Shown here: one piece after another, positions 13,892 through 55,723 of the stretch
Layout of the letters: every line of letters starts with the position of its first letter
Position numbering within the stretch: the first letter of the stretch is position 1
Assembly (NCBI GenBank): GCA_951406725.2
Contig: OX597820.1
Span: 118,110,001 to 118,174,000, forward strand
DNA from: Octopus vulgaris
Lineage: Eukaryota
DNA length: 64,000 nucleotides
Direction of reading: 5' to 3'
Program-made: the position numbers and the translations under genes
The notes under the pieces: model-generated
What the model saw: the letters and a program-made list of their open reading frames with translations, nothing else
Database searches by the model: none
What the model was told of the DNA's origin: nothing

Positions 13892-14267
13892 ATAGTTATC
13901 GCCATACTAATATGGCAATCTTATAAATATAAGACTAAAGCTGTCGATGATTAGCTCCAAGAGGCCACCGCCTCAAGCTAGCTATTTGACACACAATCTG
14001 CATTGATAAAGGGCAACTAGCCTGAAACGCGTCTGCAGCTGTCTGACTAGCAGGATGAAGCGGCTGACCTCCCCTGTTCGAAAGTCTATAATGGACGCAG
14101 ATTGTGTGTCAAATAGCTAGCTTGAGGCGGTGGCCTCTTGGAGCTAATCAGCGACAGCTTTAGTCTTATATTTATAAGATTGCCATATTAGTATGGCGAT
14201 AACTATTAATTTCCAGTAACGCTGCCGTAATCTCTTTTAGAGAGACTTAGTAATTTTAATATTTCTA
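13892..14267 (+). mobile_element. Short PLE-type element with ~110-bp inverted duplication and a decayed HHR
   Basis: Arms 13892-14001 and 14097-14206; HHR CTGCA-TTGATAA-AGGGC..GCCT-GAAACGCGTC-TGCAG at 13998-14038; flanked by (TA)n. Confidence 0.7.
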
Positions 14268-15602: not shown

Positions 15603-16060
15603 TTAGTAGATGAGGGAGTTTGACGTTGCTGCCCTCATCTGTATTTCTTGCCTACAGATAGGTTCATCCGGAACTCTTGATAAAACTGGATTTAGTTTTG
15701 TTTTGAAAAAGTTTACATCCACGCCATGCCGGTCTCTCAGGCTTTGTGGGAGGATATTGAAGAGCTGTGGCCCTTTGAAGTCCAAATAGTATCTGGTCCT
15801 GTAACCTGATGGAAATGTTGGGACCTCTGATACCATGCAGTAGCGCCCCGTCCTACTGCTTGTGTAAGTGACAATGTGAAAGTTTGGAACAAGCTTTTCT
15901 CGGATTTTCCAGATGTATATTACTGCTATCTTTCCTGCTTTTGCTTCAGGGAGTAGACTTAACTCTTTCGATCTCTCCCAGAAGCTGATATGTCGCATTG
16001 TATCGATCTTCCTTTTGTAGCTTCAATGGATCGCCTCGAGTTCCGTCGTTAATATAATCA
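15603..16060 (-). mobile_element. 3' end of a CR1/L2-superclade LINE ORF2
   Basis: FWERSKELSL...IYIWKI...VPNF...GPQLFNILP...FKTKL...VPDEP...AATSNSL C-terminal motifs. Confidence 0.7.
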
Positions 16061-18926: not shown

Positions 18927-19305
<379 letters not shown>

Positions 19306-22236: not shown

Positions 22237-22921
<685 letters not shown>

Positions 22922-29183: not shown

Positions 29184-30797
29184 TGTTTATTAGAGATGAT
29201 AATGTTGGTATTGGTCGCAGTAGTAATGATGGTGATTGTAGAACTGGTGATAATGTTTGTTAGAGGTGATAATGTTGGTATTGGTCGCAGTAGTAATGAT
29301 GGTGATTGTAGAACTGGTGATAATGTTTATTAGAGATGATAATGTTGGTATTGGTCGCAATAGTAATGATGGTGATTGTAGAAGTGGTGATAATGTTTAT
29401 TAAAGCTGATAATGTTGATATTGGTCGCAATAGTAATGATGGTGATTGTAGAACTGGTGATAATGTTTATTAGAGGTGATAATGTTTGTATTGGTCGCAA
29501 AAGTAATGATGGTGATTGTAGAACTGGTGATAATGTTTATTAGAGCTGATAATGTTGATATTGGTCGCAATAGTAATGATGGTGATTGTAGAACTGGTGA
29601 TAATGTTTATTAGAGATGATAATGTTGGTATTGGTCGCAGTAGTAATGATGGTGATTGTAGAACTGGTGATAATGTTTATTAGAGATGATAATGTTGGTA
29701 TTGGTCGCAGTAGTAATGATGGTGATTGTAGAACTGGTGATAATGTTTATTAGAGATGATAATGTTGGTATTGGTCGCAGTAGTAATGATAGTGATTGTA
29801 GAACTGGTGATAATGTTTGTTAGAGATGATAATGTTGGTATTGGTCGCAATAGTAATGATGGTGATTGTAGAACTGGTGATAATGTTTATTAGAGATGAT
29901 AATGTTGGTATTGGTCGCAATAGTAATGATGGTGATTGTAGAACTGGTGATAATGTTTATTAGAGGTGATAATGTTGGTATTGGTCGCAATAGTAATGAT
30001 GGTGATTGTAGAAGTGGTGATAATGTTTATTAGAGCTGATAATGTTGGTATTGGTCGCAATAGTAATGATGGTGATTGTAGAACTGGTGATAATGTTTAT
30101 TAGAGGTGATAATGTTGGTATTGGTCGCAATAGTAATGATGGCGATTGTAGAACTGGTGATAATGTTTGTTAGAGGTGATAATGTTGGTATTGGTCGCAA
30201 TAGTAATGATGGTGATTGTAGAACTGGTGATAATGTTTATTAGAGATGATAATGTTGGTATTGGTCGCAATAGTAATGATGGTGATTGTAGAACTGGTGA
30301 TAATGTTTATTAGAGATGATAATGTTGGTATTGGTCGCAGTAGTAATGATGGTGATTGTAGAACTGGTGATAATGTTTGTTAGAGATGATAATGTTGGTA
30401 TTGGTCGCAATAGTAATGATGGTGATTGTAGAACTGGTGATAATGTTTATTAGAGATGATAATGTTGGTATTGGTCGCAGTAGTAATGATGGTGATTGTA
30501 GAACTGGTGATAATGTTTGTTAGAGATGATAATGTTGGTATTGGTCGCAATAGTAATGATGGTGATTGTAGAACTGGTGATAATGTTTATTAGAGATGAT
30601 AATGTTGGTATTGGTCGCAATAGTAATGATGGTGATTGTAGAACTGGTGATAATGTTTTTTAGAGATGATAATGTTGGTATTGATCGCAGTAGTAATGAT
30701 GGCGATTGTAGAACTGGTGATAATGTTTGTTAGAGGTGATAATGTTGATATTGGTCGCAATAGTAATGATGGTGATTGTAGAACTGGTGATAATGTT
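29184..30797. repeat. 70-bp minisatellite, ~23 units
   Basis: aatgttggtattggtcgca.. recurs every 70 bp from 29201 to 30741. Confidence 0.97.
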
Positions 30798-42639: not shown

Positions 42640-43392
42640 CGTAGGAGTGGCTGTGTGGTAAGTAGCTTGCTAACCAACCACATGGTTCCGGGTTCAGTCC
42701 CACTGTGCGGCACCTTGGGCAAGTGTCTTCTACTACAGCCTTGGGCCGACCAAAGCCTTGTGACTGGATTTGGTAGACGGAAACTGAAAGAAGCCCGTCG
42801 TATATATGTATATCTCTCTATATATAAACGGCAGTTTGTCTGTGCGTGTTTCTGTGTGTCTGTTTGCTTGTACCCTCACCCTGACCACGGCTTTCAACCG
42901 ATTCTGATGAAACTTGACACACACATAGCCCAATGTCATAATTCAAAACTAACGCAGCCAAAATTTTGAAAAGTTCCCCCAGTTCTGAAAAATCGATAAA
43001 TTCGACATGGGGTCGAGAATTAGAAACACGAACCACAAACTGTCTAGGGGACGCAACTCCATCCTTTTTTAACTCTCAAAAAAATTTACCATCATTTTTT
43101 TCCATTTTTTTGCTATTTTTTGGCTATAACTCTCTAAAAATGCTTTATAGTTATTTCCCTTACAAACCTGAGCAACGCCGGGCGATACTGCTAGTATATA
43201 TATATATATATCTGTATGTATATGTGTTTGTGTGTATTTACGATGCTGGTGTGTTTACGTTGCCGTAACTTAGCGGTTCGGCAAAAGAGACCGATAGAAT
43301 AAGTACTAGGCTTACGAAGAATAAGTCCTGGGGTCGATTTGCTCGACTAAAAAGGCAGTGCTCCAGCATGGCCACAGTCAAATGACTGAAAC
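42637..43392 (+). mobile_element. SINE family B interrupted by a Helitron
   Basis: Head 42637-42805, tail 43235-43392. Confidence 0.88.
42813..43194 (+). mobile_element. Non-autonomous Helitron
   Basis: A|TC ... cctgagcaacgccggg hairpin ... CTAG|T; 3' end nearly identical to that of 34296-34693. Confidence 0.85.
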
Positions 43393-43434
43393 AAGTAAAA
43401 GAGTAAAAGAGTAATATATATATATATATATATT

Positions 43435-43987
43435 AATAATAATAAATATAAGGGTAGCAAAAAATTTTCCGCTACCAGCGGTCCAGTGAGAAGGAAAAGA
43501 TAGTCAAAGACTATATAATATACATTCAAGAATATAAGGAATGGCCATAATAGGACATTCGACTCACTAGAAAGAGCAGCCAAACTTTTTCTAGAATTTT
43601 TTGCTACCCTTATATTTATTAATTAATGATTTTTTGGCTAATTTTAAAATTAAATCAGCAAGTTTATATTTGCTGCTGAGAAGACCGCGCGATTGCGGTA
43701 AATTTTGAAAATTTATAGCATATAGACTTGAGGCTTCCTTACCATCGATTCGTGGATATATACTCGTCGTTGGCTTCTCTGCTGACGAGGCACGCCAGTT
43801 GTAAATAAATTTAATTTAATTTAATTAATTTGTTTACTAAAGTTTGCCGAAACTATGCATAGTCCAGAGATGAAAGGGTAAACGTTTTTATTTCTCTTTC
43901 AATTTCAGAATTACAACTATTAGCGGTTTGGCTGCTCTTTCTAGTGAGTCGAATGTCCTATTATGGCCATTCCTTATATTTTGAATG

Positions 43988-43997
<10 letters not shown>
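43435..43997 (+). mobile_element. Non-coding double-HHR element with an inverted partial copy
   Basis: 43510-43585 inverted at 43926-43997; 43440-43465 inverted at 43595-43620; HHRs at 43671-43720 (decayed) and 43776-43870; (TA)n flanks. Confidence 0.8.
43776..43870 (+). ncRNA. Intact type I hammerhead ribozyme with extended stem II
   Basis: Stem I TCTCTG/CAGAGA, CTGACGA, stem II GGCA/TGCC plus AT-rich extension, GAAA, stem III ACTA-TGCA-TAGT, GUC triplet; cleavage after 43864. Confidence 0.92.
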
Positions 43998-44069
<72 letters not shown>

Positions 44070-52789: not shown

Positions 52790-54195
52790 AGCTGAAACTG
52801 ATTTTGTTTCAGTAGCTGAGCTGAAATTGATCAGTTTCAGCTCAACTAATTTAAAAAATATAATCGCACACAACACACAAAAGCCACAATATGAAACCAG
52901 CTGTTCATGCAGGGATAAAAAATTGTGCCCGATAAATGGAGCTCCATCATTTATGAAGCCACCGTGGATTCTATATCCACTAAGGACACGGTGTCGACGA
53001 AGAAATACGTGGGCCTTACAGGAGGTAATATCAGGCACTGGGATAAAAGGAAAACGACGAAATTATCCAGTCTCATATGGTCTTTAAAAGATAAAGGTGT
53101 CAGTTACAACATTCATTGGAAGATCTTAGCCAAGTGTAAGCCCTACACCTAACGGCAGCGAAAAGTGCGGTCTTTGTAAAATGGAAAGATGGCTCACCTA
53201 GAAAAGCAGCTTAGATCCCGTCACATGTCTAAATTCAAGAACTGAATTTTTCGGGTCATGTCCATATATGGCTAAATATTTGTTACATTTTTAGTCCCTC
53301 AAAGATTACATATAGGACTTGCTTTCTATATTGCGTCCACATAGAAGCTTTTTATCTGTCTATACTTTTTACTTATATTTGTTATATATTTTATATACAT
53401 ATTTTTACATATTCATAGAGAATTTGGTTTATTGCTCATATATATTTTTTACACATAATTTTTCTGTATTCTACCTTCCACCCTGTATTTTCCTGTGCGT
53501 ATATAGACGTGTATGTGGAATTTTTTGCGCGCGTGTGTGAGTGTGTGCATGTGTGCGGGTATGTGCGTATATAGACGTGTGTGCGTGCGTGCATGCGAGT
53601 ATGTGATTATATAGACATGTTTTACTCTTATTGCTTATTTTTTACCCTTTTTTTACACATTTTTCTGTATTTTGCCTTTAGCCCTGTTTTTTCTTGTGCA
53701 TGTGCGTTTTTAGACGTGTGTATGAACCATTTTAGGTGTGTATGTGCGAGCGTGTATGCGGGTATGTATATATTTTTTGGCGAATGTGTGGGTGAGCATG
53801 TGTGTGTTTCAAGTGAGGATAGATGTACGTGAGTGTGCAGGTGCGCATGTGTATGTATGGACATGTGCGCTTACGCAATTACTATGAACATTTTTACTCC
53901 CTTACCTTTACTCCCTCCCCTTACTTAGGGGTCATTCTAATTGCTCTTTTGTCTTAGTAACGGTCAATCACACAGTAATTTCCCATTGTTTTAACGGTTA
54001 TTTTCATAGCAATTTTTCGATGGCCCGATAACTGAAGAGATGCTGGCATAGGTTTCCGCCCCGACATCCGAAACTCGGGGTTTTATCATAGCTACCGAAT
54101 AAATGTCACATATTATATTTACAGATAAATTCCTCTATTTACATAATATCGAGGTCTCTGTCATTCTTTTGTTGCTTTGCCATTTCTATCAATAT
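52790..54195 (+). mobile_element. 5'-truncated PLE (Naiad-like): GIY-YIG endonuclease remnant, 3' UTR and HHR
   Basis: CSCRDKKLCP..IIYEATV..KYVGLT..TKLSSLIWSLK..IHWKIL..KCGLCKMER..LNSRTEFFGSCPY (52827-53294, frameshifted); short 5' inversions at 52790-52845. Confidence 0.85.
54027..54087 (+). ncRNA. Type I hammerhead ribozyme in the PLE 3' UTR
   Basis: GATAA-CTGAAGA-GATG..CATC-c-GAAACTCGGGGTT-TTATC. Confidence 0.72.
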
Positions 54196-54202
54196 ATATA
54201 TA

Positions 54203-54745
54203 TATCACGCGACCGACCAGGCTATCAGATGTTCCTACACATTGCTGGTCACAATGCGCTTCGCATTGTTTTAGCCTTCAAATGACGCCACCCCGCTGGC
54301 TAAACGAGCAGGCCAACAGAAGGAAGAGTGGGAGAAAGTTGCGGCGAAAGAGTACAGAAGGCGGTGAGCTGGCAGAAATGTTAGCACGCCGGGCGAAATG
54401 CTTAGTAGTATTTCGTCTGTCGTCATGTTCTGAGCACAAATTCCGCTGAGGTCGACTTTGCCTTTCATGCTTTCGGGGTCGATAAATTAAGTACCAGTTA
54501 TACACTGAGGTCGATGTAATCGACTTAATCCCTTTGTCTGTCCTTGTTTGTCCCCTCTATGTTTAGCCCCTTGTGGGCAATAGAGAAATAAGAGTACAGC
54601 AGGGATCGCCACCACCCCCTGCCGGAGACTCGTGGAGCTTTAGGTGTTTTCGCTCAATTAAACACTCACAACGCCCGGTATGGGAAACGAAACCGCGATC
54701 CTACGACCGCGAGTCCGCTACCCTAACCACTGGGCCATTGCGCCT

Positions 54746-54748: not shown

Positions 54749-54811
<63 letters not shown>

Positions 54812-54814
<3 letters not shown>

Positions 54815-55020
54815 GTGATTGCGTGAGTATCGTTGGCAATTTTTTCCTCCGTCTTCCTTTGCTTGGATCTTTTCTTTTTCTATGTTTCTGACGAGGAGCT
54901 CCGCTCGAAACGTTAAATCCTCCTTCTTTCTTTCCTTTCCTGAGCGCCCAAAAACACTATACTTGTTCCACGTCCTCGCGTTGTTGTGTTTTCTCTCTGT
55001 GTTTTCATGTTTGGATTAAC
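54812..55020 (+). mobile_element. H2 HHR mini-element with canonical core
   Basis: TTT-CTGACGA-G-GAGC-TCC-GCTC-GAAACGTT-AAA at 54885-54917. Confidence 0.82.
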
Positions 55021-55040
55021 TTTATATATATATATATATA

Positions 55041-55636
55041 ATAAAGGGTAAAATCATTATTGATTTTTGCCAAGTGGCCAGCGGGGAAATAAAATCTCAT
55101 AGGTAAATTTTATAAATATTTTATAATTATATACCTAATTATAACAAGGACTTGGCTTGTGCCTCATCGCGCACTGAAAAATAGACGTCAAAAAACACTA
55201 TTACCACCATAAATTCTCCGAGATAAACACACTACATAATTGGCTGGCAGAAGAAAGAAAACGAATTAAAATTTTGGTTAACCGCGTACATGATCGTGTT
55301 TTTGGCTTAAAGTAATAAGAACATTACCTACTGCCTTCATCAGCGTCTGTATACCCAGGCATAAATATACGAGTGGCCACGGATTTGTAAGCGAGCTGCG
55401 TCTTCGCTTAGCTTATATCGTCAAGAATCGCAGAGATATGCTGCGAAGTAGAATTCATACCCTTCTCTTATAGTCACACGCAGTGTGTTAAAGATTAAGT
55501 CTGCAGTTAATACAGTTTTGACAGAGGAGTAAATATATTTTTCAAATATTAATTATAATAATAATAAAGGATAAAAATCATAAATGATTTTTGCCAAGTG
55601 GTCAGCGCGGAAATAAAACCTCACAGGTAAATTTTA
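55041..55636 (-). mobile_element. Partial-tandem (~524-bp monomer) element with decayed HHR
   Basis: Direct repeats 55041-55112 and 55564-55636; ACG-CTGATGA-AGGC..GCC-aAAAACACGATCATGTA-CGC at 55284-55346 (-). Confidence 0.65.
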
Positions 55637-55664
55637 CAAAGGAAAAATATATAAATGAGAGGAA

Positions 55665-55723
<59 letters not shown>

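Follow-up and report, generated by a model that had tools for sequence, protein, structure and literature searches.

The element at 43432-43998 of the window, by which we mean the whole 64-kb stretch of DNA analysed here, raises the question of what kind of RNA was copied into this locus, and by which machinery, given that it carries a hammerhead ribozyme motif between two microsatellite tracts. The first-pass annotation had read it as cDNA from a circular or tandem hammerhead RNA, made of a forward and an inverted part that join into a unit of about 455 nt closing on itself. The element is flanked by (TA)9 and (TA)37 in a microsatellite-rich animal genome, is AT-rich (GC 32%) and consists of an inverted part, read on the minus strand from 43585 to 43432 as blocks A, B and E, and a forward part (43586-43998) that runs through E, the hammerhead-like motif H1, the intact hammerhead, a spacer and A (Table 1). 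The repeats agree with the anatomy described earlier, as the two parts joined give a unit of 450 nt, or of 459 nt with nine extra bases at the forward start. The statement that the same end-motif stands at both ends holds as far as the identical positions of E go, and not for the 2-nt indel between its two copies or for their upstream contexts, which are also unlike. Both ends of the element merge into (TA)n, a target-site duplication is unreadable inside a TA tract, and the head is an inverted, 5'-truncated piece. We consider it probable that the locus is one insertion of a high-copy family of ~450-460 nt whose units carry a single intact hammerhead. The family is likely a non-autonomous offshoot of the end module of a Penelope-like element (PLE), that is, an animal non-LTR retrozyme, and the locus was likely copied into (TA)n by a PLE RT-endonuclease from an uncut transcript longer than the unit.

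Table 1. Features of the element and of its flanking tracts, in window positions.
Feature	Positions	Strand	Remarks
(TA)9 on the left, likely target, into which the inverted part leads	43415-43432	.	
End-motif E, short form, 3' end of inverted part	43432-43466	-	33/35 identity to 43595-43627
Block B, 45 nt, single occurrence in locus	43467-43511	-	
Block A, inverted copy, 5'-truncated start of inverted head	43512-43585	-	73/74 identity to 43926-43998
Inversion junction, 10-bp fold-back (9/10 complementary, 8-nt loop)	43567-43594	+	
End-motif E, long-form context, start of forward part	43586-43627	+	joint 43465/43586; 11-nt insertion variant in contigs
Degenerate hammerhead-like motif H1, likely inactive	43671-43720	+	5-bp stem I, core without G8
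Complete type I hammerhead, cleavage predicted after C43864	43776-43870	+	52-nt loop II, AU hairpin, 12-nt palindromic stem III
Spacer 3' of cut, with 31-nt GT..AG stretch (43878-43908), no function assigned	43871-43925	+	
Block A, forward copy; TATATTATATA end blends into target tract	43926-43998	+	A-to-(TA)n end also at 43536 (run X1)
Right (TA)37 tract, likely target	43993-44066	.	

The intact hammerhead combines a 6-bp stem I (TCTCTG at 43776-43781 with CAGAGA at 43865-43870), the core segments CTGACGA (43782-43788) and GAA (43849-43851), a 4-bp stem II (GGCA/TGCC, with G10.1-C11.1) whose loop contains a 15-bp AU hairpin, a stem III formed by the perfect palindrome ACTATGCATAGT (43852-43863) and a GUC cleavage triplet with C17 at 43864. 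The type I core is complete (C3 U4 G5 A6 N7 G8 A9, G12 A13 A14, A15.1-U16.1 and H17, three helices, helix I open), and the stem I, cleavage triplet, palindromic stem III and stem II extension that had been ascribed to this ribozyme are all present. It is the sole match of a strict type I scan of both strands of the window (128 kb); when the element was shuffled 20,000 times, 2 of the shuffles contained such a match, and 40 shuffles of the window gave 0.05 matches each on average. Rfam gave no hammerhead among its four matches to the element (E<=10), nor among the 150 of 251 matches listed for the whole window, where microsatellite matches dominate, and this miss is likely due to the length of loop II.

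The description of the locus as a double-hammerhead unit goes too far. H1 has a minimal GAAA-ATT-TA half, and its core reads CTGAGAAGA, without G8, with the hairpin 8 nt away from G12; it thus has neither the conserved core from C3 to G8 nor G12 next to stem II. The loose H1 pattern was found in 17 of 5,000 shuffles, and no core-restoring change was present among the 40 of 78 variants listed from public contigs. Because the lack of G8 is apparently family-wide, there is one hammerhead per unit, and H1, judged by its letters, is hammerhead-like and not a second intact ribozyme.

On the completeness of its core, the intact motif can fairly be called the window's best candidate for activity as a ribozyme; what does not fit this proposal is the monomer put forward for transcription (43770-43875), which is predicted to misfold. 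There, folding prediction gives stem III a probability of 0.03, against 0.92-0.95 for an alternative GAC/GUC pairing, and the constrained hammerhead fold lies 2.1 kcal/mol above the minimum, while in contexts of 160-412 nt the probability of stem I drops to 0.03-0.10. The palindrome alone forms no stable hairpin, and its self-duplex has -15.9 kcal/mol. For a dimer, the minimum free energy structure is a double hammerhead through the palindrome, at -59.9 kcal/mol versus -47.4 kcal/mol for two monomers; energy models leave out the tertiary contacts of the core, and all these folding results are predictions. Since the active fold is predicted to be rare in the monomer and two copies to fold as a double hammerhead, cleavage is likely to be dimer-dependent, via the palindrome, in line with the dimer model described for metazoan and PLE hammerheads (PMC4209133). 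As the monomer construct is predicted to misfold, a negative monomer assay would be no refutation of activity.

The family was followed in public sequencing contigs. Part of the stretch is contained in 20 of the 24 listed runs, under four organism labels, and none contains half of its words; no run recorded as RNA is among those that contain it. The contigs of four of these runs were aligned to 43433-43935 (503 nt), with 1,247 and 1,037 contigs from two DNA runs and 74 and 19 from two guessed-RNA runs. In run X1, 268 contigs were at least 99% identical, 376 were 95-99%, 422 were 90-95% and 181 were below 90% identical. These contigs show a high-copy family; summed depth reached ~2e5, which we do not take as copy number. 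The contigs are short, and 43739-43840 is thinly covered. In the window itself no second copy of the family was found, and a 20-nt block A pattern had no match in metagenome or viral contigs. One GTDB match of the same pattern was set aside as chance, being a bare 20-mer with unlike flanks.

Thirteen joints were listed in these contigs. Four are the expected collinear continuation from spacer to A. Three others, from the two DNA runs, tie B/E to the forward start (43460/43591, 43465/43586 and 43467/43595, the last with 25 letters that fit both sides), and we infer, with the joint direction, that they would be end-to-start junctions in other copies. A comparison of genomic copies, collinear or end-to-start, had been suggested as a check of the closed unit, and to it the contigs contribute these three short joints at low depth (52-109), no contig spanning a whole unit or two hammerheads. 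The remaining six read as head-to-head inversions (43492/43625, 43529/43684, 43539/43694, 43559/43604, 43593/43862 and 43593/43869), and one more joint of this type was seen outside the thirteen (43503/43701). With this locus included, the forward starts at inversions range over 43586-43701, and the inverted heads start at 43492, 43503, 43529, 43539, 43559, 43585, 43862 and 43869. Among the 24 of 257 loose ends listed, some run into TA-rich letters, in E (43623, 43445) and in A (43536, run X1), which are the same two ends as in this locus. Other copies have a different spacer between H1 and the hammerhead (loose ends 43732-43734 and 43761) and an E that is 11 nt longer; subfamilies exist within the family. 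The contigs of the two guessed-RNA runs cross the cut site and, unspliced, the GT..AG stretch; since they carry no strand, ends or level, they were not used as evidence of expression or splicing.

The ribozyme itself varies within the family. The AU arm differs in length between copies (pieces with 0, 6, 7 and 14 gaps), and the catalytic core is unhit among the 40 of 78 variants listed, where ~1 hit was expected by chance, so that this is no test. The variant G43869A, which would break a stem I pair, makes up ~56% (X1) and 33% (X2) of the aligned depth, with no partner change among the variants listed, and many copies may therefore be weak or dead. Such a stem I variant without visible compensation, together with the predicted misfolding of the monomer and the low stem I probabilities in longer contexts, could mean that the hammerhead is an inherited, functionless relic and that the family spreads at the DNA level, by satellite-like recombination or in a MITE-like manner, and not via RNA; local tandem amplification is indeed discussed for retrozymes (bioRxiv 10.64898/2026.07.22.740005). 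However, the dispersed copies, their variable 5' truncation and head-to-head inversions, and the (TA)n ends are marks of retrotransposition, and what look like terminal inverted repeats are pieces from within the unit and no fixed ends, which makes this explanation very improbable.

The inverted 5'-truncated head, the tail-like end and the microsatellite target found here correspond to the layout of EN+ PLEs, whose published hallmarks are partial tandems, a neighbouring 5'-truncated copy in inverse orientation, tails of 30-40 bp and insertion into (TA)n (PMC8557442), and fold-backs at the inverted junction have been published for PLEs (PMC3846280). According to PMC11167929, the PAc protein acts in vitro on AT-rich DNA, both strands of which it cuts and extends; RT starts internally, 3' of the PAc hammerhead, and uncut RNA is inserted equally well. 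We propose that a tandem or 1.1-unit source locus would be transcribed as E-H1-HHR-A-B-E, that a PLE protein would nick both strands of an AT-rich target and that, by analogy with PAc, cDNA synthesis would begin at AT-rich internal positions, in this locus where A ends for one strand and where E ends for the other. The longer product would be the one that in the sequence runs back across the intact hammerhead to the start of E, and the shorter the one that stops at the start of A; the two 5' ends would then be joined head to head at the fold-back. For the ribozyme we predict cutting chiefly in the dimer formed through the palindrome, so that single transcripts would be spared and tandem ones processed. 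A single event, with priming on both strands and longer-than-unit RNA as template, would explain the locus most simply; it is also possible that the template was antisense and self-primed, as PMC3846280 proposes.

The cleavage site is uncut within the locus copy, and the visible ends lie in A and E, away from the cut. The layout is the ordinary form of a PLE insertion, and a permutation from cut to cut is not seen. As the forward product crosses the cut site intact, the template was uncut or re-ligated; and as the E copies differ more than the A copies, two template positions, in a linear 1.1-unit or tandem RNA, are indicated and not one monomer circle. A re-ligated circle would also give a copy spanning the cut, and the alternative is that tandem transcripts are processed by the hammerhead to ~455-nt monomers, which ligation closes into circles, one of which served as the RT template of the locus copy. 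The full core and the predicted double-hammerhead dimer are consistent with this, coral, mussel and axolotl retrozymes yield circles that are proposed as templates (PMC7229834), and circular folding of the joined monomer gives -106.6 kcal/mol (z -3.3), a stability that none of 120 shuffles reached. However, the hammerhead is absent from this circular fold, which is branched and 64% paired (shuffles, 60%), and one of nine Xenopus retrozyme dimers is reported as cut in vitro (bioRxiv 10.64898/2026.07.22.740005). Two of the eight inverted heads, this locus counted, begin no more than 5 nt from the cut (43864/43865), at 43862 and 43869; but each of these two joints stands under its own species label and both may represent a single orthologous insertion, and 43862 precedes the cut by 3 nt. 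The visible 3' ends are at A and E, and E copies unlike in context and with an indel, in an insertion that its A copies mark as young, would not come from one monomer circle. We regard a circular source as unlikely, and a circular template is not needed for this locus. What stands of the earlier reading is that the copy was RNA-templated, from a tandem template (three joints, two DNA runs); its circular variant is unsupported.

It is likewise doubtful that the family is a live retrozyme with the palindromic stem III as a dimer switch: single transcripts would stay uncut and serve as RT templates, tandem ones would be cut and circularised to ~455-nt RNAs, and the 5' ends of cut RNA would bound the inverted heads. 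Among the inverted heads seen, none starts upstream of 43862.

The locus could, finally, consist of two 5'-truncated end fragments of an autonomous PLE (pLTR plus tail, and inverted head), with the closure of the unit only apparent and due to stacked partial tandems or to E being repeated within the pLTR. The same layout is known, with an inverted pLTR that overlaps the direct one and a pLTR that holds the first ORF codons (PMC3846280), and a 4-bp stem III starting AC resembles the Hydra-clade rows in File S2 of PMC8557442. A 94-codon stop-free frame runs in the joined unit from the spacer through A-B-E; it has no ATG, a stop-free frame of at least 95 codons occurs in 2% of shuffles of the 565-nt element, and the 50-aa A-B-E frame had no relatives among 48 word candidates, in Pfam or among 1.84 billion representatives. 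The first-pass statement that the unit has no ORF is therefore right for ATG-led frames, the longest of which has 17 codons, and needs to be qualified for this frame without homologues. The sole ATG, at 43870, is not constant within the family (T43871G), where indels of non-triplet length are also found. We had considered this ATG, with the 31-nt GT..AG stretch as an intron, as a PLE ORF start, and ruled it out in view of the variable ATG, the peptide without relatives and the intron length, 31 nt being very short for an animal intron. Continuation for 20 or more unlike letters was seen in 1% of the aligned DNA contigs, a test blunted by their shortness, and none of the forward starts seen lies farther upstream, in foreign sequence. 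No RT or GIY-YIG ORF lies in or beside the element, and no autonomous partner PLE was found or linked to the family. The consensus ends of the octopus Hydra-1_Obim showed no likeness in a comparison by eye only, which weak homology could escape, and three of three element words are absent from the supplement of PMC8557442. An origin from fragments of an autonomous PLE thus appears improbable, and we continue with the non-autonomous retrozyme inserted from an uncut, longer-than-unit transcript.

The window holds further sequences of related appearance. A relaxed scan gave five further hammerhead-like matches, of which four were examined and lie in short repeats; together with a 524-nt element between (TA)n tracts, they indicate that the class is common in the window. 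This element (55042-55668, minus strand) is a direct 1.15-unit copy of a ~524-nt unit; its direct terminal repeat measures 80 nt, at 88.75% identity, and its hammerhead at 55343 has an AU hairpin on stem II, a near-palindromic stem III and A instead of G12. Its architecture is parallel to that of the element at 43432-43998, and the likeness in sequence is not significant (z 0.4-1.8, 300 shuffles each); alignments of the latter with 55015-55200 and 53960-54205 gave AT-rich matches only. Another family has two copies (237-272 and 22792-22827, plus strand), with a minimal hammerhead (CTGATGA ... GAAACGTT) adjoining (ATA)n. A ~200-nt element between TA tracts is also present twice (54810-55025 and 19030-19226, plus strand), with a minimal hammerhead in the copy at 54888 and a damaged one in that at 19097. 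A hammerhead-like motif at 54032-54082 (plus strand) combines a Hydra-like stem III with a long loop II, the stretch around it ending in (TA)n at ~54200, and the relaxed-scan match at 14003 is of the U3-A8 type. Apart from hammerheads, we noted a 70-bp satellite (29184-30797, 23.1 copies, 96% matches), a ~370-nt insert in a SINE-like repeat (42825-43193) that ends in ...GATACTGCTAGT before a TA tract and that we take to resemble a short Helitron/Helentron-type element, and a 139-aa stop-free frame (15603-16022, minus strand) with two relatives at ~50% identity, presumably the end of a LINE ORF.

Animal non-LTR retrozymes are described as type I hammerhead repeats of 51-972 bp, 150-450 bp also being given (PMC7229834; bioRxiv 10.64898/2026.07.22.740005), related to PLE pLTRs and proposed to be non-autonomous PLE derivatives (bioRxiv 10.64898/2026.07.22.740005). 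The present family is like them (Cervera & de la Pena 2020; Li, Clavereau & Pollet 2026) in being non-coding, AT-rich, a few hundred bases long and of high copy, with one type I hammerhead per unit and, as we read the joints, end-to-start junctions in genomic DNA. Unlike them, the locus is a split, inverted 1.2-unit insertion and not an array of at least two complete hammerhead units, and with the extended loop II the usual contact between loops 1 and 2 is not evident. In size, copy number and hammerhead the element agrees with animal non-LTR retrozymes, and it may work like one, cutting and circular RNA being predicted. With EN+ PLE insertions (Hydra, Neptune and Naiad for (TA)n; Craig et al. 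2021, PMC8557442; Arkhipova et al. 2013, PMC3846280) it shares the inverted 5'-truncated head, the fold-back at the junction, a 35-40-nt end motif, the (TA)n target and a sense hammerhead 130-210 nt upstream of the 3' ends, whereas it has no coding region of the EN+ PLE kind and no sequence link to a named family. PAc, a Poseidon PLE of Anolis carolinensis (Frangieh et al. 2024, PMC11167929), similarly has its 3' ends at alternative internal sites beyond the hammerhead, yields products on both strands of the target and is copied across an uncut hammerhead; in the account given there, however, PAc starts in an AC-rich stem-loop without target homology, whereas the ends of the element are AT-rich and look microhomologous to (TA)n. 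Type I structure, G10.1-C11.1, palindromic helix III and the predicted dimer are shared with dimer-working PLE hammerheads (Cervera & De la Pena 2014, PMC4209133; Hydra rows, PMC8557442), but the Hydra-clade rows have a helix III of 3-4 bp with 1-3-nt loops in place of a perfect 12-nt palindrome. Long loops II are also given there, of ~30 nt, for two spike-moss PLE-X1 rows (PMC8557442 File S2).

Recent activity is reported for Penelope-like families of octopus genomes (PMC13282606), which also carry a Hydra family that targets (TA)n (PMC8557442 supplement). In the literature searched we found no description of a cephalopod family of this kind, and the supplements of the retrozyme and PLE papers may contain one. 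Elements of this kind and insertions laid out in this way have been published before, and the abundant family itself is a new example, by which a retrozyme-type family from a microsatellite-rich animal genome is added. Its full core, long AU arm and perfect palindrome make it a clean substrate for comparing monomer and dimer cleavage. The role of the PLE hammerhead has been called unclear (PMC8557442), and the motif is reported to be dispensable for insertion in vitro (PMC11167929). The position of inverted-head breakpoints relative to the cut site in this family could test that role, and if the dimer-switch reading were true, thousands of natural junctions would reveal from the genome what the PLE hammerhead does in vivo.
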